Below, piece after piece: positions 30,597-55,968 of a DNA stretch of 64,000 bases (within the stretch, counting starts at the first letter, position 1; the number at the start of each line of letters is the position of its first letter). Below the pieces are notes generated by a model. It searched no databases, was not told the DNA's origin, and worked only from the letters and a program-made list of their open reading frames with translations. Source of the stretch: a virus; the IMG/VR virus record IMGVR_UViG_3300045988_087149, positions 32,001 through 96,000 of that record; one strand, given 5' to 3'. A program made the translations under genes and the position numbers.

Positions 30597-31436
30597 TTAA
30601 AAATTAACAACGCTCATTGCATTTACTGCACGCTGCTCAGTGCGCTTGATATATCTATTTGCTGTGATAGCAACTGAGCTATGCCCCATTGCCTTACTAA
30701 TGACCTCAATAGGCACATCGGCTTCAGACATCATAGTAGCAAATGTACGGCGCATGGTATGATTACTGATATGCAATTCCTCCCAATTCTCAATACCGGC
30801 TTTTCTCGCACATACTTTGAGCATTGCACTGGTATTCTTGCCATCCATTTTATTGCCACGATTGCCAACAAACAGATATTCACAGCCATCTTTGCGCTCA
30901 TTGGCAATATAGCTATCAATCAGCTTAATTGTCTCATCAGCCAAACCAACCAATCTATCCTTATCGCCCTTACCGCGAATGACCAGAACATTATTGCTAC
31001 GAGATTCGTACTGTTCAAGCGTAATATTGGCAAGCTCATGGATACGCAAGCCAGTCTGAGCAAGCATCATAATGATCGCCTTATTACGCTTATTAGTAGC
31101 CGCATTGACCATTGCCCTGACCTGTTCGCCATTAAGAGCCGATTGCTCACGATTCTTAATCTGTGGCGCTTCAAGCATCTCAGCCGGATTGCGGCTAATG
31201 AACTCGTTCCTATAAAGGAATTTGAAATATTCACGAACCGCAGACGTTCTCTGAGCAACAGATGCAGAGCTAAGATTACTCATGCTGGACTGCCACAGCT
31301 CAAGGTCAATCGGCTTGATTTCGATTTCAGGTTTATTGACATATGTCATGCAATTCTCAATCGCCTTAGTGTATTCTCTAATCGTTCCCTCACTACGGTG
31401 CTTTGCCTTGAGGCTCATAACAAACAGTTCATTCAT
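30597..31436 (-). CDS. tyrosine site-specific recombinase (XerC/D-like, short form)
   Basis: 279 aa. Catalytic signature LAQTGLRIHEL, HTMRRTFAT, GHSSVAITANRYI (R..HxxR..H..Y). Confidence 0.9.
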   Translation of the reverse strand: MNELFVMSLKAKHRSEGTIREYTKAIENCMTYVNKPEIEIKPIDLELWQSSMSNLSSASVAQRTSAVREYFKFLYRNEFISRNPAEMLEAPQIKNREQSALNGEQVRAMVNAATNKRNKAIIMMLAQTGLRIHELANITLEQYESRSNNVLVIRGKGDKDRLVGLADETIKLIDSYIANERKDGCEYLFVGNRGNKMDGKNTSAMLKVCARKAGIENWEELHISNHTMRRTFATMMSEADVPIEVISKAMGHSSVAITANRYIKRTEQRAVNAMSVVNF

Positions 31437-31438
31437 GT

Positions 31439-31630
31439 TTACACCTCCTCAACAACGCCCTTGTAACCATAACTGGTTTCAAATGAAGCCCAAGACTTGC
31501 AATTGCTTCTCGTGTACCAATGCGGCGTATAAACAAAATCTTCATCAGCATCAACGAGCTTACGAAGTGCGTCTCTGAGACAAGTCGCCTTAACAGTGTA
31601 CCACAAACCACGAATTTTGAAGTTTCTCAT
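31439..31630 (-). CDS. hypothetical phage protein (63 aa)
   Basis: Start moved to ATG 31630 (MRNFKIRG), which has AAGGAG 10 nt upstream. The track start lies upstream of the predicted transcription start site of promoter 31660-31688. Confidence 0.5.
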   Translation of the reverse strand: MRNFKIRGLWYTVKATCLRDALRKLVDADEDFVYTPHWYTRSNCKSWASFETSYGYKGVVEEV

Positions 31631-31659
31631 AATATTCAGCTCCTTCATTTGATGATTTA

Positions 31660-31688
31660 AGTATAGCACCATAGCGGCGATTTGTCAA
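31660..31688 (-). promoter_or_regulatory. sigma-A-type promoter (leftward)
   Basis: cTTGACAAAT (31688-31683), 17 bp, TATACT (31665-31660). Confidence 0.65.
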
Positions 31689-31702
31689 GAGTTATTTTTA
31701 GA

Positions 31703-31736
31703 AAAATCCCTATAATCTTTCGACCATAGGGATTTT
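31703..31736 (-). terminator. intrinsic terminator after the HU gene
   Basis: 11-bp perfect stem AAAATCCCTAT/ATAGGGATTTT with a 12-nt loop. On the minus strand it ends in UUUU. Confidence 0.65.
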
Positions 31737-31750
31737 AACAGGAGGATTAT

Positions 31751-32026
31751 TTACTCATTGATTTCTGCCTTTAGTGTGCTTGTCGGCTTAAACGTCAGAG
31801 CATACTTAGCAGGAACTTCAATGGTTTCACCGGTCTGTGGATTACGAGCCGTTCTTGCATCACGCATCTTGGTTGTGAACTTGCCAAAGCCATGAATCAC
31901 CACATCTTCATGCTGAACTAGGCTATGTCTGATATAGTCAATGAACGTATCTACGATCTCAGTTGTATCCTTGACCGTATTTTCTGTGCTGTCTGCAACA
32001 AACTTGACGATTTCTTTCTTGGTCAT
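31751..32026 (-). CDS. hup: HU-type DNA-binding protein (DNABII)
   Basis: 91 aa. MTKKEIV...GFGKFTT..RDARTARNPQTGETIEVPA...FKP is the canonical HU pattern. Confidence 0.9.
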   Translation of the reverse strand: MTKKEIVKFVADSTENTVKDTTEIVDTFIDYIRHSLVQHEDVVIHGFGKFTTKMRDARTARNPQTGETIEVPAKYALTFKPTSTLKAEINE

Positions 32027-32639
32027 AAATTCCTTTTAGTTTCCTTTCAATTTCTAATAAAATTTTATTAAAACAAGTCGCAATGTTCATGCGCATATTG
32101 ACTTGATATATAGGGTTATTGTTCCACTATCAACTACTTACAGGGTCCTCTTACCCAAGCCTTATATTGTTTAGTGGGTTTACAGCCGCTACATCACTAA
32201 ACTAATTTTTTTTGCGTCGAACTCGACACGTCATTTATCCTTGGACTTAATGACGATTTCAGTAATGCGCGGAATAGGCAATCACCGCGCTATGAGTCTG
32301 TAGCCGACTACTCTTTGTGCTTTCTACTTTGAAGCCCGTCAACCTTGAACATTCCGGACTATTCAAGGATTTTTAGAATTTCTACACTCCCTACAAATTC
32401 ATGTTAAATTGAATTTACAGTTGCGCAACCATCTTAAAATCAAGAGTGTGGCGGCGTTGCCTTATAGTATCAGGTGGTCAACCGTCAGCTATTCAGCAAC
32501 TAGCATTACAACCCATAAACTAGACCATTTGCAAGCGACCAACTCTTGGCCTTGGCCTTACAAAGCTAGGATTTTCAGCTTTTCCTCCAGACGTCTATCA
32601 AGTGTGCTTACAATGCTAGTAGAGGCATGATAGACGTTT

Positions 32640-32710
32640 TGACCGAGGCGGGACTTGAACCTGCATTCATCTGCTATGAACAGCTCGCTTACCAGTTAGC
32701 TGACTCAGTC
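32640..32710 (-). tRNA. tRNA-like gene, anticodon CAU (Met/Ile2-type), imperfect cloverleaf, no encoded CCA
   Basis: Acceptor GACTGAG/CTCGGTC, anticodon loop UUCAUAG, T-loop TTCAAGT. It has an extra nt before the D stem and mismatches in the anticodon and T stems. Confidence 0.5.
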
Positions 32711-32804
32711 ATATGGAAATGGGCTTTAAGCATCAACCCATTAGAAGCGTTGGATTCCTATTCAGTTTATTAAGTCGTATGTATCCAACAACCAGTGGAC
32801 TTAA

Positions 32805-32881
32805 TGGTAGCTCAGGTGGAATTCGAATCCACACTTTACGGATTTTGAATCCGCTCCCTCTGCCGATTGGGGTACTGAGCC
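32805..32881 (-). tRNA. tRNA, anticodon CAA (Leu codon UUG) on a short-variable-arm (class I) body, CCA encoded
   Basis: Acceptor GGCTCAG/CTGAGCT (G1-U72), anticodon arm GCGGA-UUCAAAA-UCCGU, 5-nt variable loop, T arm GTGGA-TTCGAAT-TCCAC, then A73-CCA. Confidence 0.65.
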
Positions 32882-47258: not shown

Positions 47259-48419
47259 TTATTCATTCTCCTCATTTTCATCACAATCTTCATCTACAAA
47301 ATGGACATCTACGTTAAAAAATTCTTTTAGTACATCAATAGCCTCTTTTGGCTCGATGCGGAAAAATTCTCTATCAGGGTTGACCCGCTCTTTGTCAAAA
47401 TATTTATGGATATTATTTTCTAGCTCAAAACAGTCATCGCTAAATACGAAGCAATGAGCGTGGTACGGTTCTGGCAAGCTGCTTGAGCTAAGTTCGCGCA
47501 CTCTCAATGCAGGATTCAATCTTCTAGTACAACCGAGCTTCACCAATCCGGGTAGACTAGGTGAACTAATGACATATAGCCAACCAGCCTTACTATGCGA
47601 CTCACGATAAGCAATAGAATCAAGCCGCTTATCAATACTAGCTAATTGAGATTTAATCCTATTGCGCTCATCATCTGTTAACGCCTTATCAAACGCAATA
47701 TTCATTGCTTTCTTTTCTTCTAGCAACTTGGCGCGTTCTCTAGCAATATCAGCAAGCAACTGTTCTTGCTCTCTCAATCTGCGCTTTTCTTCACGGATTC
47801 GCGCTTTTTCTTCTTTCTGCTTGACTTTGATAGCCAAGTTAATATCGAGCATATCAAGCCGCGCCTTTACATATTCAGCATTAAGCGCCAATCCGACCTT
47901 ATTTGCTTTAGACTGATAAGAATTAAATTTATTCTTAATCAATTCTTTGCTCTTAGCAATATTGCCTGTTGTTACAGATTTTTCTTTGCTGTCAATATAT
48001 CCTGACATAGCATAGCACAATCCGCGCCCATATACATCCTGCATTTCTTTTCCACGTCTGTCTGAGCCGTTTAGCGTATATCCTTGCTCAATGCGATACA
48101 AGCCAGTGTTCGCAGCAGATTCAATTTTGCTTTGCAGCTCATAACGCTTATGCTCAAGTTCATCTAGCGAATCCTGATAATATGGAATATTATAATCCTG
48201 CATTTCTTCAATGGCATGGATTTTACCATTTAGAGCATCAAGAACGGATTGAGCCGTTTTTGCAGATCGCATGGTGTTTTCATATTGATGCGCAGCAATT
48301 TGACGATGTTCATCATAGTTATCAATTTCTGCTTGCATACTAGAAATATCTGCTTTGAGTTGAGCAATCTGCTCTTCAAGCTCTTTCTTCTTCTTGTTCA
48401 GCTTGAAAGTCTCGAACAT
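47259..48419 (-). CDS. DUF4041 coiled-coil + T5orf172 (GIY-YIG-like) domain protein
   Basis: C-terminal GWLYVISSPSLPGLVKLGCTRR...RVRELS...FRIEPKEAI resembles T5orf172. Start moved to ATG 48419, with AAGGAGG 9 nt upstream. Confidence 0.65.
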   Translation of the reverse strand: MFETFKLNKKKKELEEQIAQLKADISSMQAEIDNYDEHRQIAAHQYENTMRSAKTAQSVLDALNGKIHAIEEMQDYNIPYYQDSLDELEHKRYELQSKIESAANTGLYRIEQGYTLNGSDRRGKEMQDVYGRGLCYAMSGYIDSKEKSVTTGNIAKSKELIKNKFNSYQSKANKVGLALNAEYVKARLDMLDINLAIKVKQKEEKARIREEKRRLREQEQLLADIARERAKLLEEKKAMNIAFDKALTDDERNRIKSQLASIDKRLDSIAYRESHSKAGWLYVISSPSLPGLVKLGCTRRLNPALRVRELSSSSLPEPYHAHCFVFSDDCFELENNIHKYFDKERVNPDREFFRIEPKEAIDVLKEFFNVDVHFVDEDCDENEENE

Positions 48420-48606
48420 GCTTAGCCGCCTCCTTGCCAAAAATCTTGTCTATATGCTTATCAAAATCCAACGGATTATTGCTTTTTGCTAAAATCTGCT
48501 TAGTGCTGGTATTATATAGCTCGAATTGACCATTGCCGCAATTATTGATAATCCAGCCAGTATCGCCATATTGGACTATGGCGTTAATTTTCTTTGTTCT
48601 TGGCAT
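48376..48606 (-). CDS. hypothetical protein (76 aa), first gene of the accessory operon
   Basis: AAGGTGA upstream; short leader from promoter 48627-48655. Confidence 0.5.
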   Translation of the reverse strand: MPRTKKINAIVQYGDTGWIINNCGNGQFELYNTSTKQILAKSNNPLDFDKHIDKIFGKEAAKHVRDFQAEQEEERA

Positions 48607-48981: not shown

Positions 48982-49125
48982 TTGTGGAGCGAAATGAGCT
49001 ATAACTGGTATGTATCGAAAGATACGGAGCCAGAAGTATGGGATGATGAATATGAGCCAACTGAGCGTGATTGGGCGCTTTGGATATATGGTAGTTCAGA
49101 GAATGAATTAGAGGTGATTTTTTGA
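48982..49125 (+). CDS. small acidic protein (43-47 aa), coupled to the RNAP gene
   Basis: GGAGGTG upstream of TTG 48982 and ATG 48994. The stop TGA overlaps the TTG start at 49122 (TTGA). Confidence 0.4.
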   Translation: MWSEMSYNWYVSKDTEPEVWDDEYEPTERDWALWIYGSSENELEVIF

Positions 49126-50723
49126 GCCTACAGACGCAAATTTATTTGCATTCAGTGGACACGTCATGTTTTTATGACGACAACGAAATGGCACTACATA
49201 GACGGCTTGTTCGGTTATATTCGTTGCGCAAGCGATGGAAGGATGATGGTAAACCAGATTGGCACATCAAGTCTGTAAATCGTTTGCTTAAAAAAGAAAA
49301 GGCGCGACTATCTGAATTGCTTGATAATGCTGTGAGTCGAAATGTAACTAGAGAATTGCGTCAAGATGCTGTGACCGATAAGACGGTTGTTAATTTATTT
49401 GAATCTGATCTAACGCGAAGCTTAGGGCTTGAGCCATTCAAGTTGACCGATGAACTATTCATCATTAACGTGTTTTTCTTTCAAGTATTTAACAATCTAG
49501 TTCATCAAGGATTTATCTACAATGGTGAAAAATATTTGTTCCTTACAGCATCAGCAGGACAGATAAGGACGAAACGAGCAGTATTCGTTAAAGAATCGTC
49601 GTTTAAGCGCATTGAGCAAAAATTGATGTGCGGCTTGACCATAGACGAAATCAATGAGCGGGGAGGCATGAATCAGAATAAATTCCTTGCTTATTTGGCG
49701 CTTATGAACTCTGCTACAGATGTTTGGCAAGATTTTGACATTGACAAATCAGTTGTAGTAGATGATTGGGAAACAGCTGTTCCGGGATTGGTTGACCACA
49801 TTGATGGCGTATCGTATGAGATTCGGCGCGAAATGACAGAGACAATGATTCCTCATATGGACGGATGCGGCATCATGCTTAATGAAACAACAAGAATGGT
49901 GCGTATGCCATGGGTAAAGGGATTACTTGTTACATTTCCATTTGACAAGTTTATCAAAGAGAAATGCGGAGGTGAAGCGACTGTAATAGATATTTATGGC
50001 TATGAGCATAAAATCATAGAGGAAGATATACGGTATATATTTACAAAGAGCCAATTCAAGCTATGGAAATTTTATGATTCGTGGGATTGCTATAAGGCGC
50101 GATTCAAAAATTTTGGATGTAATGCCTGTTATTGCAATATAGAAGAGCCTTATATTCCAAAGAGCCGCATCAACTATCAGATGCTTCAAACATTGAGCGA
50201 TATGACTGATAATGAGATCGACCGCATCGTTTCTAAGACTGCACAAGAGATTGATGATGTTGGCAAAGATTATCAAGTTACTATGCGGCTACTTGGCGCA
50301 ACAGAGAACAACCGTTATAAGTCGGCCATGCAAGAGGCGTTGTTGATATATCCTGAGTTGTTTAAGGATTCATATAATCGAGAAATTCTGAAGCAGACTA
50401 AAAAGAGTTTAGTAAAGCAAGCTAAGGGCGGGCGGCTTAGAGTAAATGGTAAATACCTTTTTTTAGCGCCTGACCTATATGCGTTTTGTGAATGGTTGTT
50501 CCTAGGCGAACAAAACCCGCAAGGATTGCTTGCAGATGGTGATGTATATACAAACCAATATCGAGATGAAGAAACGTTGGCTTGTTTGCGTTCGCCGCAT
50601 CTATATCGAGAATGGGCAATCAGGACAAATCGACGCAGCTTAGAGCTTGATTATTGGTTTGGTGGAACTAAGTGTATATATACTAGCTGTCATGATTTAA
50701 TCAGTAGATACTTAATGTTCGAT
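49122..50723 (+). CDS. YonO-like single-subunit (two-barrel) RNA polymerase, exon 1
   Basis: 534 codons from a TTG start (GAGGTGA upstream), ending ...SRYLMFD. Joins exon 2 to give MFD-CDGDKALVV, a beta-prime-like DxDGD motif. Total length is about 857 aa. Confidence 0.6.
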
Positions 50724-51690
50724 TAGTTAGTCGCAGTCGAACCCTATGGAAACATAGGGATATAAAACGGTGTGAAGGCGTAAATGCGCCATGTCAGAAA
50801 TGGCAACGGGGAAAGTGAGTGCAACCCCGTAGGAAATAGAATGAATGAATTATTAAACTATAAGGAGGTGGAAAAATGTATAAAGAAGGAATTTATTGCC
50901 GTTGTGCATATCGAGTAAATGAAAATGGAGATTGTTATACACAAAATGGCAAATTTGAGTGGGTACATAGAGAGTGGCGATATAACAGTGATGGGTATGC
51001 TGTTGTATCAGCTTGTGGTCTAAAGCCAGACGGTACTAAGACATTCCGCTCACTTCATGTTCATGTATTAGTTGCGAGAGAATTTGTTGATGGATGGTTT
51101 GAAGGCGCAGAAGTAAATCATAAAGATTTTAACCGTGCTAATCCTGCTTGGTGGAATCTTGAGTGGTTAAGTCATAAAGATAATATTGCTTATTCGCATA
51201 ACGCTGGTAATTATAAAGGGCGGTTTGGTGAGGACAATCCAAACTATGGTAATGACACGCTACACAAGAGATACGTCGCCGAGCCTGAATTTGCCAAAGA
51301 AAAGCAGTCTCGGCCAAGAGGACAAAATGGACGTTCTGTGAAATGCTTATTATATTGTCATCAAAATATGTGTTTTGAGCATTGGTTTGATTGCCAGCGC
51401 GACGCAGTTGATTTTCTTATTGACTATAATGTCGTAAAATCAACTTGTAATAAAGAGAGTATAATTAGCAAGCTGAAACAAGAAGATGGATATAAGGGCT
51501 GGCATCTTATTCAAGATAAATAATTCATTCATTTAAAACCTCTATCGACTATCGAAAGGATATAAATCAACCGTGTGGGTTGATTTAGAATAACTGAGTA
51601 GAGTAGGAAATGGGTGAAATTCCCATCTCCGAAGCGCACCGAGCCTAAACGGGAAACCGCATGGTTATGATATAGTCAGTAACTCCTACG
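50724..51690 (+). mobile_element. group I intron with internal HNH endonuclease ORF
   Basis: P1 forms between exon GTTCGAT (50717-50723) and intron GTCGAAC (50736-50742), with a U-G pair at the splice site. A GAAA-capped hairpin lies at 50743-50758. The last intron nt is G (51690). Further perfect stems occur at 51570-51590 and 51610-51635. Confidence 0.7.
50876..51523 (+). CDS. HNH homing endonuclease (intron-encoded)
   Basis: 215 aa with AAGGAGGTG upstream. HNH core VHVLVAREF...EVNHKDFNRANPAWWNLEWLSHKDNI. Confidence 0.8.
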   Translation: MYKEGIYCRCAYRVNENGDCYTQNGKFEWVHREWRYNSDGYAVVSACGLKPDGTKTFRSLHVHVLVAREFVDGWFEGAEVNHKDFNRANPAWWNLEWLSHKDNIAYSHNAGNYKGRFGEDNPNYGNDTLHKRYVAEPEFAKEKQSRPRGQNGRSVKCLLYCHQNMCFEHWFDCQRDAVDFLIDYNVVKSTCNKESIISKLKQEDGYKGWHLIQDK

Positions 51691-52662
51691 TGCGACGGAG
51701 ATAAGGCGCTTGTAGTCAAAGACCGTACTTTGTCTACAGTTGCCAAACGCAATATGCAAGATATAGTTCCTTTAGCATACGATCTCAAAAAAGCTAAGGG
51801 CGGCTTGTTAAATCCAGACAGTATGTATAATGGAATGGTAAATGCTTATACTAAGGGAAATATCGGGCCGGTTAGTAATAATATTACAAAAATATGGAAT
51901 AGTGGTGAAATTACACAAGAAGAACTAGATGTAGTAAAATGGCTTTGTTTTGAGAATAACGCTGTTATAGATTGCGCTAAAACGCAATGGCTACCAGAAC
52001 GACCGAAACAAATTAATAACACAATCAAGAAATATACAAAAGCTCGTGTTCCCAATTTCTTTCAATATGCCAAAGACAAAGACCCAGATACCCAAGTAGA
52101 ACCGTCCAACAATTCCACGATGAATCGTATATCAGCCAAAATTCCTGCTTCCAGAATCCGCTATAATAGCAAGATTGGGAAATTCGACTGGACGATGCTG
52201 ATAAATAAATCAGTTGATTATACCACTAGAGAAAATTCACCAATCGTCGAACGGTATAATTGGTGGATGTGGAATCAGCGCCGATTTGATTATGGCGATG
52301 ACCCGCATATCAATGAGGACGATTTATATAAATATCGCTGCATTGCACAAGATATAGTGGAATATAGCAATAAGCCGCTAGATGTTGTTGTTAATAGCTT
52401 AGTTGCTTATTTATATACGGTCAAAAAATCAAGCAATAAGAAAATGCTGTGGGCTTGTTTTGGTTGGACGATTGTAGAGAATTTGAGAATCAATACGGCG
52501 CAACTTAATCCAATCTGCCTCATTTGCGGTAAGCGGTTTAAGCCGCGTGATGTATGCCAACATTATTGCTCTGAGGAATGCTACAAGAAAGCAGATAATC
52601 AGCGGCGCACTGAATCGCGCGAAGCTTCACCTGTCCGCACGGGGGATATGTTAAAACAGTAG
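51691..52662 (+). CDS. YonO-like RNA polymerase, exon 2
   Basis: The frame is open from 51676. CDGDKALVVKDRTLSTVAKRNMQDIV... The track TTG at 51730 has no SD. Ends in TAG 52660-52662. Confidence 0.6.
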   Translation, partial: CDGDKALVVKDRTLSTVAKRNMQDIVPLAYDLKKAKGGLLNPDSMYNGMVNAYTKGNIGPVSNNITKIWNSGEITQEELDVVKWLCFENNAVIDCAKTQWLPERPKQINNTIKKYTKARVPNFFQYAKDKDPDTQVEPSNNSTMNRISAKIPASRIRYNSKIGKFDWTMLINKSVDYTTRENSPIVERYNWWMWNQRRFDYGDDPHINEDDLYKYRCIAQDIVEYSNKPLDVVVNSLVAYLYTVKKSSNKKMLWACFGWTIVENLRINTAQLNPICLICGKRFKPRDVCQHYCSEECYKKADNQRRTESREASPVRTGDMLKQ

Positions 52663-52731: not shown

Positions 52732-53151
52732 TTGCATAAAAATAAATATCCTCGGCTAGGCAAAGCCGACATGAGTAAAGAGTTGCGGCGGCGCACAGGT
52801 GTTGATTCTAAAATCATTGAACTAGTATTAAGAAATTATCATGATATCATCCGCGAGACACTACAGCATGGTGTAGAATATTCTTTGCCAGATATTGGTG
52901 TTATTACATTTCGTGACCATCCACCAAAGCCAGCTGGTGAATATTGGAACGGATTCCAAAAGCGGCGTATGTATTACCCTGACAGACAAGGATATTATCG
53001 GCTAGAATTTAAGGCTGAGAAACATATGGCTAGTGCTGTTAAAGGTGGTACATTGTATGGGAAAGGCGCAACTAAAGAGGAATATGATGCTTGGGTATTA
53101 GAGAATTATCCAGATAACCCCAAGTTTATGAAGGAAGAAGAAGATGGCTGA
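52732..53151 (+). CDS. HU/IHF-like (DNABII-fold) DNA-binding protein, long form
   Basis: LPDIGVITFRDHPPKPAGEYWN...YYRLEFKA resembles the HU arm region. TTG start with AAAGGAA 8 nt upstream (alternative ATG at 52774). Confidence 0.5.
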   Translation: MHKNKYPRLGKADMSKELRRRTGVDSKIIELVLRNYHDIIRETLQHGVEYSLPDIGVITFRDHPPKPAGEYWNGFQKRRMYYPDRQGYYRLEFKAEKHMASAVKGGTLYGKGATKEEYDAWVLENYPDNPKFMKEEEDG

Positions 53152-53707
53152 ACATAATAAGCTGAATCAAGAATTTTATGCTTATGCTGGTGGATTGCTC
53201 AATGTATCGCCCCAGACTGCCAAGAAATACTGGATGGGGTTTGTTGATACTATTATTCATATTCTTCATTTTGATGGTAAATGCCAAATGCCAAGCATAG
53301 GCACATTTACACTGGAAGAATTGCCTGAGCGCAAAGTAATGGCTAAGAACGAGCAGGGTGAACTTGTTGAACAAATTAACCCAGCTTGGTTTAAGATATT
53401 ATATAAGTACAACGAGGATTTTCTTAATAATGTTAATGGGCGCGGCGTTACAAAGAAATATCGTAGGCGCGTCCGCGAACGTAAGTTGACACCAAATGAT
53501 CTCAAGCTGATAACTCAAGCTGAAATGGAACGAACGGCAAAGCGAACATTGAAGCAGATGCAAGATGACCGTATTGAGCAAGCAAAGCAACAGAGTTATG
53601 ATGATTTTATCAATGTAATCAACAAGAAAAAAGAAGATTATGAACGGAAAAAGAAGGAAAAGGAACAGAAATTGAATGAATCTACAGAAGATACGACAAG
53701 CGACTGA
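53144..53707 (+). CDS. HU/IHF-like DNA-binding protein with basic/acidic C-terminal tail
   Basis: MPSIGTFTLEELPERKVMAKNEQGELVEQINPAWFKILYK matches the IHF/HU beta-arm pattern. Confidence 0.55.
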   Translation: MAEHNKLNQEFYAYAGGLLNVSPQTAKKYWMGFVDTIIHILHFDGKCQMPSIGTFTLEELPERKVMAKNEQGELVEQINPAWFKILYKYNEDFLNNVNGRGVTKKYRRRVRERKLTPNDLKLITQAEMERTAKRTLKQMQDDRIEQAKQQSYDDFINVINKKKEDYERKKKEKEQKLNESTEDTTSD

Positions 53708-54860
53708 GCTGCTAGATAGCAAGTTGATTGACTTACAGGAATGGACGGCTCGTTGTCTTGGTGAAGATTATAGGGGCGTTTGGAGCGAGGAGTATTTGCG
53801 GCGTTGTGCCGTATTTGTTCGCAATATGCTAAATGGTGCAGACGATTATGAATCAGATGAAAAGGACACTAATATTCTATCACAGCTTAGAGAGGCTAAG
53901 CAGGAACTAGAGAAAGAACGTAAGAAATTACAGAGTGAGAATATTCAATATGTTCAGAATAAGAGATTTGACGCAAGAGCAGAATTGATTCAAGAAAAGA
54001 TTGCTGAGTCAATTAAGAACCTTGAGCCGTTTACTATCCGCGAGTTCAACAAGTTACCACAAACGAATGTAAGTGGGCTTCTTTGTATTTCTGACCTTCA
54101 TGCTGGTTCAACGTATGAAATCAAGGGTGCATATAATGAAATTGTAAATAAGTACGATTTTGGCATTATGAGGGCGCGGCTTGATGGGTTGCTTAACAAG
54201 ATGTGCAATGATGATAACTGCATTTGGCTAGATGACATTACGGTTGCTGTGCTTGGTGATTGCGTAGAGAATATTCTACGCACATCTAGTCTAGCTAAGC
54301 TGAGAGAACCGGTTATTGATACAGTTATCAAGTTGTCTGAATATCTAGCTGATTGGTTTGTTGAATTGCACGACCGACTTGAAATTCCTGTTAATGTGGT
54401 GATGGTTGGTGGTAATCATGATGTGTGCCGCCCATTGACCTCTAAGCCACAGTTTGAGGAGGAAAATCTAGGTAAAATCATTGTATGGTATCTACAAGAG
54501 CGGCTAAAATCAGCAGATGGAATTACTGTAGACGATTACACAGATTGCGCTATTAAATACATTAAGAACAATGCAATCATGCTTCATCATGGAGATGGCG
54601 GTGATGTAGCTGAAACAATGCGATATTTTGAAAATTTATATAATATTGACATTGACGAGTGCTATGTTGGACATCTACACCGACAAGAAATGAAGAACGC
54701 TGGTATTACTGAGTTAGGTGATAAACTGTGTTGGCGCGTTGGCTCGGTATGTGGTGTTGATGGATTTGCAAAGTCTATTCGTAAAGCATCAAGACCGTCT
54801 TGTATGTTTACTACATATTCAGAAGATGGTGCAGAGTGGCGTAAAACATTTTATCTTTAA
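53676..54860 (+). CDS. calcineurin-like metallophosphoesterase (Mre11/SbcD-type fold)
   Basis: ISDLHAG, LGDCVEN, GGNHD, HHGDGG and GHLH motifs in the canonical order. Confidence 0.75.
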   Translation: MNLQKIRQATELLDSKLIDLQEWTARCLGEDYRGVWSEEYLRRCAVFVRNMLNGADDYESDEKDTNILSQLREAKQELEKERKKLQSENIQYVQNKRFDARAELIQEKIAESIKNLEPFTIREFNKLPQTNVSGLLCISDLHAGSTYEIKGAYNEIVNKYDFGIMRARLDGLLNKMCNDDNCIWLDDITVAVLGDCVENILRTSSLAKLREPVIDTVIKLSEYLADWFVELHDRLEIPVNVVMVGGNHDVCRPLTSKPQFEEENLGKIIVWYLQERLKSADGITVDDYTDCAIKYIKNNAIMLHHGDGGDVAETMRYFENLYNIDIDECYVGHLHRQEMKNAGITELGDKLCWRVGSVCGVDGFAKSIRKASRPSCMFTTYSEDGAEWRKTFYL

Positions 54861-54897: not shown

Positions 54898-55968
54898 ATG
54901 GAATTGCGGCTAATATCTGCGGATTTAGTCTTGGCTTGGGGATGTGTTCTACAAGTTCCATAATAGAGGAAAAGCCTGAACGCTTTTCGCTGTCATATGA
55001 CAGAATTTATCTTATCGGTAGCGTCAGTTGCAAATGGCGCTACCACCCTTAAATTGATTCATTCTCTACTAGGTGATAGCTACGGCTGTGTTGATCATGC
55101 TTGTGGGGCGATTGACCCACCTAGCAGAGTTGAATATAATCGAGCCGTAATCTGCAATTCAGCAGAGCCTAATACGAGCATGACATTGGTTGTGGCGGGC
55201 TATGTCAATATAGTATCGTAAACTGTATCGGCTCAGTTTTCATCTCGACCACGCAATCTCTAAAGTATCCCGTTTAAGTGAGCAACGGCGAATCTGTAAA
55301 TGGGCGTGTTGGAGATTTATAACCGACAAAATCTTATTCATCCTGCCTTTCTCGAATCCTTGCGTTTATACGTGGGGTATTGATGTAGAGAGGGTGGGTA
55401 TTCATCTCATGTACCATGCGTACAAGGAGTTCTTGAAGTCGTTAATAGCGGCTTTTGCAAAATCCTATCCTAGACGATAGGCGTATAGCAACATGTGTGT
55501 TATATGAGCGTATGAAGCATAGAACCGGGTTGTCTTTCGGCAATATGTGGACGTTTACATTGGGTTTTCAGCATACCGCAAGGCAACAAGAAAATGCTGA
55601 CCGACTATGCGGTAAAGATGGGACAACAGGTATCATAGGAGCCAATGACGAACCATATAAAACATAACAGGGAGTGGCGCTCGATACCGGCATGCGCTTG
55701 ATAAATACCGGACATTAATGAGTCCATAGGTAAGGACGTTAAAACTGCCTGTCGCTACTACTCATTGGCGGCTATGAATATCCGAAAGGAGGTCACTATT
55801 CTCTTGAATTATCCACTGGTTTATCCGAAGCATAATTAAAGAAAGGATGGTGGTCAGAGCCCATTGGCTCATATCTACAATAAGCCCAACTCAATGGGAA
55901 CTGTTGTTTAACTGAATATTGTACATTGACAAATACGAAGCAGCTGAGAGCAATCTTGGCTGCTTCGT
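54898..55968 (+). ncRNA. about 1.07-kb structured non-coding RNA candidate
   Basis: All three frames are saturated with TAA, TAG and TGA, and there is no SD-preceded ORF. Visibly GC-richer than the flanks. Perfect helices at 54990-55003, 55017-55044, 55464-55481 and 55860-55898. Bounded by a promoter and a hairpin. Confidence 0.55.
55935..55968 (+). terminator. terminator-like hairpin closing the non-coding RNA locus
   Basis: Perfect 10-bp stem ACGAAGCAGC/GCTGCTTCGT with a 14-nt loop. The following U-tract is weak (CATATTTAT). Confidence 0.45.

Follow-up and report, generated by a model that had tools for sequence, protein, structure and literature searches.

Introduction

Homing group I introns that carry endonuclease open reading frames (ORFs) are a classic kind of selfish element. 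Among the Firmicute phages, group I introns are found in genes of essential nucleic-acid enzymes, such as the SPO1 DNA polymerase gene, whose intron encodes I-HmuI (PDB 1U3E), and the bnrdE and bnrdF genes of SPbeta. A putative group I intron with an I-HmuI-like HNH nicking endonuclease, gp210, has been described in a two-barrel RNA polymerase (RNAP) gene of phage PhiPA3, where it adjoins the conserved catalytic-site aspartates and has intron-less relatives as potential targets (PMC11620839). An intron in the RNAP genes gp273/274 of 201phi2-1 has also been mentioned (PMC2919709). We examined a window of 64,000 nucleotides (positions 32,001 to 96,000 of IMG/VR virus record IMGVR_UViG_3300045988_087149) in which a gene similar to yonO of SPbeta is interrupted by an insert at 50724-51690. 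In a first inspection of the letters, here called the sequence-only reading, the insert was proposed to be a group I intron. From our examination, we consider it a mobile group I intron in the YonO-like single-chain two-barrel RNAP gene of a temperate gut phage, with a probability of roughly 0.88.

The locus resembles the PhiPA3 case in each of the features named above. However, the host gene in PhiPA3 encodes a beta-like subunit of the multisubunit virion RNAP of a jumbo phage, whereas the enzyme here is of the single-chain YonO type, and the insertion site here is the beta-prime-type DxDGD triad itself, unlike the beta-subunit site of PhiPA3 (PMC11620839). Competition and nicking were shown by experiment for PhiPA3 (PMC11620839); for the present element, both would be predictions. 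The SPO1 enzyme I-HmuI is homologous to the ORF product encoded here, although the host genes of the SPO1 and bnrdE/F introns differ from yonO. SPbeta YonO shares with the window the FD-x-DGDKAL context of the triad and an HU-like gene downstream (PMC5467207); its gene is uninterrupted, and the homologue in the window derives from an uncultured human-gut phage.

The sequence-only reading knew of no intron at the active site of a YonO-type RNAP. Searches pairing yonO with intron, homing endonuclease, and related terms found no paper reporting a yonO intron. The claim of novelty is softened by GenBank records in which yonO is split at a second site, described below, and by the RNAP beta intron of PhiPA3 (PMC11620839). 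The element is of a familiar kind, and its host gene is one for which no intron is described in searchable papers.

Results

Two exons of one YonO-like polymerase gene

The ORF at 49122-50726 encodes 534 amino acids and ends in ...SRYLMFD followed by TAG, and the last codon of exon 1 (GAT) specifies the first aspartate of the DxDGD triad. The frame containing 51691 is open from 51676, after a TAG at 51673-75, and is translated as CDGDKALVVKDRTL. Its earliest start-type codon is a TTG at 51730, 13 codons in and without a Shine-Dalgarno (SD) sequence, and inspection of the junction revealed neither a start codon nor an SD belonging to exon 2. Joining 50723 to 51691 gives an in-frame protein of 857 amino acids with a Cys-rich tail at the C-terminus of its exon 2 part. 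With the slash marking the junction, the predicted ligated exons read ...AUGUUCGAU/UGCGACGGA... (longer form TTAATGTTCGAT/TGCGACGGAGAT; core TTCGAT/TGCGAC).

We compared this spliced product with known families. Exon 1 matched positions 2-550 and exon 2 positions 551-845 of the 847-position profile PHROG 8308 (E = 1.8e-180 and 1.3e-56, respectively), and the exon halves are therefore contiguous in the family profile. The product aligned to SPbeta YonO in one piece, with 44% identity over 96% of the length (tblastn; E = 0), and the junction MFD-CDGDKALVV fell on QFD-NDGDKALII of YonO. The triad D534-C-D-G-D538, which is formed only by exon joining, was aligned to DNDGD of YonO, where mutation of the aspartates abolishes activity (PMC5467207). 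The Pfam RdRP family (PF05183, QDE-1 family) matched residues 116-476 at 38 bits against a cut-off of 23.8, a match that stops short of the junction. A PDB sequence search with the spliced protein returned no polymerase match and no YonO-like chain. The closest homologues in cellular genomes (Paenibacillus and metagenome-assembled genomes) were only 40-60% identical, and the exon 1 protein was present on one ENA contig of 97,101 bp. By these comparisons, exons 1 and 2 are one YonO homologue, predicted to be a single-chain two-barrel RNAP of the YonO type.

Much of this had been anticipated. Both reading frames, including the missing start signals of the second, were confirmed by the sequence and the ORF list, and the join restoring MFD-CDGD at the metal-binding motif was borne out by PHROG 8308 and the YonO alignment. 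The predicted size close to that of YonO also held (857 versus 839 amino acids), as did the assignment to the YonO-like polymerases, given the identity to YonO and the Pfam score above its cut-off.

An optional insert at one codon boundary

Close relatives in IMG/VR (L005-L009, L019, and L024) encode a 93-96% identical protein without interruption, reading ...ATGTTCGAC/GTAGACGGGGAT (MFD-VDGD) across the position of the insert; the intron-less site of the L005 type is ATGTTCGAC/GTAGACGGGG. In other relatives (L020, L021, L028, L030, L040, L042, and L045), the codon boundary is occupied by an insert, as it is in the window. Further copies were collected from viral and metagenome contigs with a DNA pattern taken from the 3' core. 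This yielded 46 loci with 30 distinct inserts, and the addition of L075 and L091 gave 32. Every one of the 32 follows the ...FD codon of a YonO homologue, and most come from human-gut assemblies; the 3' boundary of each insert was set from the reading frame alone. Inserts without an ORF measured 273-326 nt, and those with an ORF 900-1012 nt. The element is optional, and its position is fixed to a single codon boundary, hereafter site A. Homologues made as two separate polypeptides, an arrangement that the sequence-only reading had raised, were not encountered: all were either uninterrupted or contained the same putative ribozyme, with no independent two-gene starts.

A group I fold with compensatory changes

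The elements at the splice sites were found throughout the family (Table 1). P1 formed 6-7 bp with the U·G pair in 32/32 distinct inserts, its helix being invariant, and a terminal G was likewise present in every insert. P10 formed 6/6 bp in all 32 through five covarying combinations, such as GUCGCA/UGCGAC, GUCCAU/GUGGAC, and AUCGCG/UGCGAU. The splice rules put forward in the sequence-only reading (an exon ending in U, an internal guide with a U-G wobble at the splice site, and a final G) were thus upheld across the family, and its GAAA-capped hairpin corresponds to P2. Three observations go beyond that reading, namely P10, the P6a stem enclosing the ORF, and the failure of Rfam to detect this intron.

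Table 1. Features of the yonO-like locus and its probable group I intron, in window coordinates
Feature	Position	Strand	Details and evidence
Exon 1 of YonO-like RNAP gene	49122..50723	+	534 codons; ORF list, PHROG 8308, Pfam RdRP, alignment to SPbeta YonO
P1 and guide region	50717..50742	+	exon GUUCGAU 50717-23 with GUCGAAC 50736-42; U·G 50723/50736 at 5' splice site
Group I intron (probable)	50724..51690	+	967 nt; in-frame UAG first, G last (omega-G, 51690); absent from relatives, covariation
P10	50730-35 with 51691-96	+	GUCGCA with exon 2 UGCGAC; perfect 6 bp
P2 hairpin, GAAA loop	50743..50758	+	both-side changes in 4/6 pairs
P3 5' strand	50768..50774	+	CGGUGUG, with 51635-51641; 99.3% of cells paired, 4/7 pairs compensatory; also found by RNAalifold
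Extra hairpins X and Y	50777..50804	+	X 50777-90, Y 50793-804; between P3 and P4, a position atypical for group I
P4 around short P5	50807..50829	+	CGGGG/CCCCG; covariation; aligned to RF00028 P/Q elements in L054
P6	50831..51541	+	AGG 50831-33 with CCU 51539-41; 3/3 pairs compensatory
P6a stem	50839-54 with 51519-34	+	loop houses endonuclease gene
Intron ORF, I-HmuI-family HNH homing endonuclease	50876..51523	+	215 aa; SD AAGGAGGTG at 50862-70
3' catalytic domain	51547..51677	+	P7, P7.1, P7.2, P3 3' strand, P8; covariation, RF00028 alignment, R1 matches
P7	51547-51 with 51673-77	+	GACUA (R element) with UAGUC, inside GAUAUAGUC 51669-77 (S element); invariant in family
P7.1 hairpin	51564-86	+	many compensatory changes
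P7.2	51606-30	+	7/9 pairs compensatory
P3 3' strand	51635-41	+	covaries
P8	51643-65	+	covaries
3' tail, omega-G, and P10 exon strand	51678..51696	+	no P9 hairpin; 13 nt from P7 through G51690
Exon 2	51691..52662	+	323 codons plus stop; starts CDGDKALVV; PHROG 8308, YonO alignment, ORF list
HU-like DNA-binding gene	52732..53148	+	Pfam Bac_DNA_binding 25.8 bits vs cut-off 22.4

Covariation was assessed in an alignment of 20 diverse cores (A2), built with MAFFT after the ORF-bearing loops had been cut out by hand. Across 64 pairs in 13 helices, 96.5% of the alignment cells were paired, and 31/64 pairs showed changes on both sides. None of 500 shuffles reached as high a value, and sliding the 3' partners by 1-3 columns reduced pairing to 29-41%, with 6-11 compensatory pairs. 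RNAalifold, run without a supplied structure, recovered P10, P2, P3, X, P4, P6, P6a, P7.1, P7.2, and P8. Within the atypical P3-P4 region, all five pairs of hairpin X were compensatory and 100% paired, while the basal pairs of hairpin Y covaried and its length was variable. P6a stems of 10-18 bp surrounded the ORF in every ORF-bearing variant, with sequences that differed between lineages. Judging from the aligned inserts, the helices are maintained by compensatory changes. The insert is more than a chance sequence, because close relatives lack exactly 50724-51690 and the helices covary across 20 inserts. Two further pairings were considered and set aside: that of the 3'-tail loop ACUCC with the GAGUAG region was not supported, and that of the P7-strand CUAU with GUAG was predicted by RNAalifold but is invariant and hence not supported either.

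The GACUA and GAUAUAGUC strands are what we take to be the classic R and S consensus elements of group I introns. A comparison by eye with the T4 td intron (subgroup IA2, with I-TevI in P6a), for which the td 3' half used was an exact match to the T4 record, showed the ORF likewise in the P6a loop and the same succession of R/P7, P7.1, GAGUAG, P7.2, P3', P8, and the S element. The P4 context of td, UAACGGGG...CCCGUG, is also similar to that of the yonO intron. Unlike the yonO intron, td has P9, P9.1, and P9.2, a GIY-YIG ORF, and no hairpins in the joiner between P3 and P4 (J3/4). The SPbeta bnrdE/F introns are alike in their R/S elements and 3' domain; in these, P3 directly adjoins P4 without X or Y, whereas the yonO intron has two hairpins there. 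As for subgroup IA, P7.1 and P7.2 are present between P7 and the P3 3' strand, while the short J3/4 joiner and the P9 extensions are missing. The fold of the insert is group I, and its layout comes nearest to type IA, the td-like introns of phages. Together, the covarying group I core, the terminal G and P10 in all 32 inserts, and the existence of ORF-less variants support the original proposal of a group I intron in a YonO-like gene.

The Rfam result and other points against the group I assignment

Several observations weigh against this assignment, or limit the evidence for it. The Rfam group I scan of the intron region that the sequence-only reading had called for did not yield a detection: RF00028 gave no match in the window, either at the gathering score or at E <= 10, and none in the ORF-less insert of L040. 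The best member of the family, L054, reached 19.0 bits (E = 0.011) against a gathering score of 50. R1, a covariance model of the intron 3' domain that includes the window among its sequences, gave a non-significant score on T4 td (7.9 bits). The fold is unusual in having hairpins X and Y where td and bnrdE/F have a 3-5 nt joiner, and in the absence of a P9 hairpin. P1 and P7 are invariant and therefore silent as to covariation, the pairs were counted on the very sequences from which the structure had been derived, and parts of P8 and the S element could not vary, being fixed by the DNA pattern with which the relatives were gathered. The exact spliced protein was absent from a collection of 15 billion proteins, a look-up that served as a proxy for transcript evidence. 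Finally, splicing at this locus is deduced from the nucleotide sequence, a point that also serves the dead-intron explanation weighed below.

The Rfam miss was examined further. On the 277-nt ORF-less insert of L054, RF00028 produced a full-length alignment on the correct strand, with P4, its partner strand, and the R/S elements in register. The notion that RF00028 is generally insensitive to phage IA introns was disproved by the SPbeta controls, in which the bnrdE intron, itself established by experiment, scored 92.4 bits and the bnrdF intron 41.8 and 36.9 bits. Because these were detected, the miss is specific to the yonO intron lineage; the two P3-P4 hairpins are its likely cause, and the large P7.1 and the missing P9 probably contribute. 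R1 scored 179.8 bits on the window (51544-51696), and in the SPbeta ribonucleotide reductase (RNR) region its top two matches fell in the 3' domain of the bnrdF intron (E = 0.0044) and that of the bnrdE intron (E = 0.039), at coordinates where RF00028 independently places both. At the nucleotide level, megablast of the locus against phage records returned no match, and blastn with the intron returned only a 69-nt endonuclease fragment in Enterocloster phages. Since the standard Rfam model misses this lineage, intron surveys based on RF00028 undercount it.

The endonuclease and signs of mobility

The product of the intron ORF was similar to I-HmuI (PDB 1U3E; E = 5.9e-7), with the HKD-N...NL-W...N residues aligned, and to PHROG 59 (E = 5e-18). 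Its score for Pfam HNH_3 was 23.2 bits, slightly below the cut-off of 24.8, and its cluster at 90% identity has 1083 members. The SD-preceded HNH ORF in a peripheral region that was noted at the outset is accordingly recognised as an I-HmuI relative in the P6a loop. The same intron backbone was found with other passengers: a second HNH lineage in P6a, or no ORF. In four metagenome contigs (L079, L082, L083, and L089), a LAGLIDADG_2 ORF (84.9 bits) lies in P7.1 in place of an HNH gene in P6a, which suggests that another endonuclease invaded a different loop independently. Decayed intron ORFs were also recorded, frameshifted in L080 and truncated in L102. This variety of passengers is expected from a cycle of gain, decay, and loss.

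Exon sequences near the insertion site differed from intron-less alleles by 27-43% within -30 to +60 nt of the site, against a background of 7-10%. In L020 the intron is identical to that of the window, and so is the tract from -60 to +600, while the exon sequence upstream is 8-10% divergent. The divergence spike and the L020 tract are both consistent with an intron that moved along with its exon flanks, as in homing with co-conversion. A more distant, uninterrupted YonO homologue (L108, 667-686) has flanks of the intron-bearing type, TTCGAT/TGCGACGGAGATAA, its intron-less site reading TTCGAT/TGCGACGG. This may be either a candidate empty site ready for homing or the product of precise intron loss.

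Related introns at a second site in yonO

GenBank records of phi3T, SPR, Goe11, Goe14, BUCT083, and SPbetaL3-L7 contain yonO in two pieces, without remark, owing to an insert at a site that we call site B. It lies about 94 codons downstream of site A, after ...NNFTID/AVID, and the pieces are annotated as two separate coding sequences (CDS). Carriers include phi3T (L002, 3358-3757), Goe11 and BUCT083 (L001 and L003), and the gut phages L010, L011, L021, L027, and L042. R1 scored 22-39 bits on the site-B inserts (35-36 bits, E about 4e-7 to 7e-7). These introns share the X/Y hairpin arrangement and the optional presence seen at site A, and their P7 is GACCA/UGGUC. The site-B intron of phi3T has no ORF, and those of Goe11 and BUCT083 contain one of the GIY-YIG/NUMOD3 type. 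The window lacks a site-B intron; both introns, at site A and at site B, were found in L021 and L042.

Discussion

Alternative explanations

We weighed the reading of 50724-51690 as a mobile group I intron against other accounts of the same locus. One is that the intron is dead, its ribozyme or context having decayed, with yonO a pseudogene or rescued by a helper. The single A·C mismatch in P7.2 of the window, absent from most relatives, lends itself to this account, and the odd J3/4 hairpins and the missing P9 could impair folding. Against it, that mismatch is the only break in the core helices of the window, and the two conserved exons and the intron ORF are all intact. L020, another phage contig, has the identical intron, and the HNH cluster is populous. 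Moreover, the X/Y hairpins are conserved by covariation and are common to the site-B introns of culturable, plaque-forming Bacillus phages. We regard a dead intron as improbable.

Slightly less credit is due to the idea that yonO is truly split by an endonuclease cassette, with two products that come together as proteins and without any RNA splicing. There is precedent in fragmented phage enzymes that are reconstituted from two peptides, such as an RNR (PMC3045599); GenBank annotates the halves as separate CDS, yonO_1 and yonO_2, and Rfam calls no intron here. Yet exon 2 has no start signals at the junction, with the first start-type codon 13 codons in, and the catalytic triad would be divided, one chain receiving a single aspartate and its partner the remaining two. 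ORF-less inserts of only 273-326 nt have been kept at the site with compensatory changes, for which selection on the RNA fold is the only explanation, and the pairing of P10 between intron and exon 2 in all 32 variants also argues against a split gene.

Least probable of all is a structured mobile RNA of another class (for instance a piece of a group II intron, or a ribozyme not yet described) that is group I-like at its splice sites only: the scores below the RF00028 threshold, the atypical P3-P4 region, and a weak match to group II D1-D4 in L040, no better than chance (14.5 bits, E = 0.48), are outweighed by a complete group I set (P1 with U·G, P10, P3/P7 pseudoknot topology, P4-P6, P8, GACUA/GAUAUAGUC, and the terminal G), by the lack of group II domain V/VI features and of a reverse transcriptase ORF, and by passengers (HNH, LAGLIDADG, and GIY-YIG in the site-B intron) that are classic group I ORFs. 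Intein and group II readings were ruled out by the in-frame stops, the lack of a reverse transcriptase ORF, and the lack of domain V.

Proposed mechanism and implications

Under the preferred reading of a mobile group I intron, P1 (GUUCGAU/GUCGAAC) would present the U·G pair for attack, after U50723, by an exogenous guanosine that P7 binds. P10 (GUCGCA/UGCGAC) would then align exon 2, and the free 3'-OH would attack after G51690. Ligation of ...MFD to CDGD... would restore the DxDGD metal-binding triad. Unspliced RNA would give only the 534-aa fragment, which stops at the first codon of the intron (UAG) and has a single aspartate of the three; splicing would therefore be needed for active polymerase and for the late transcription that it presumably drives. 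The SD within the P6a loop would serve for translation of the HNH enzyme, which would nick intron-less yonO alleles of co-infecting relatives; during repair, the intron would be copied into these alleles along with adjoining exon sequence. By analogy with PhiPA3 gp210, the enzyme might also disable the polymerase gene of such relatives (PMC11620839).

There is a fair chance, although less than even, that the site-A and site-B yonO introns are a distinct uncatalogued group IA lineage, marked by two P3-P4 hairpins, no P9, and no Rfam detection, with YonO-type polymerase genes in phages of Firmicutes and of the gut as its special target. In such a lineage, the endonucleases may act as weapons against the late-transcription polymerase of intron-less co-infecting relatives, and the start of late transcription may be controlled by splicing.

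YonO-like genes of many gut phages and of model Bacillus phages such as phi3T and Goe11 are now annotated as two unrelated or truncated ORFs; once the intron is recognised, each pair becomes a single enzyme whose active site is intact. The single-chain two-barrel RNAP joins a short list of phage targets of homing introns, and it does so at the most conserved motif of the polymerase superfamily. The choice of the DxDGD site fits the rule that homing elements pick invariant catalytic sequence. Because related introns occur in culturable SPbeta-like phages, splicing, homing, and a role in phage competition can be tested directly in B. subtilis.

Genomic neighbourhood

The sequence-only reading placed HU-like genes downstream of the polymerase gene. 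This was confirmed for the first of them (Table 1), whose position matches that of yonN after yonO in SPbeta, phi3T, and Goe11; the ORF that follows (53144-53707, + strand) matched no Pfam family at E <= 0.01. Close upstream of the polymerase gene, an ORF at 47259-48440 (- strand) encodes 393 amino acids that comprise an N-terminal coiled coil and a GIY-YIG-related domain (T5orf172/MUG113), and its product may be a free-standing nuclease-like protein.

Further from the polymerase gene, we noted an ORF called by eye as tyrosine-integrase-like (30597-31436, - strand), a second HU gene (31751-32026, - strand), and two tRNA genes (32640-32710 and 32808-32881, - strand). Together, these features of 30597-32881 suggest a temperate phage. 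R- and S-like motifs at 31721 and 31931 were considered as signs of a second intron and were rejected as chance matches, the latter lying inside the opposite-strand HU gene. About 480 nt downstream of a metallophosphatase gene (53676-54860), the Rfam RNA motif DUF3800-VIII was detected at 55337-55404 (+ strand), with 46 bits against a gathering score of 40.2.

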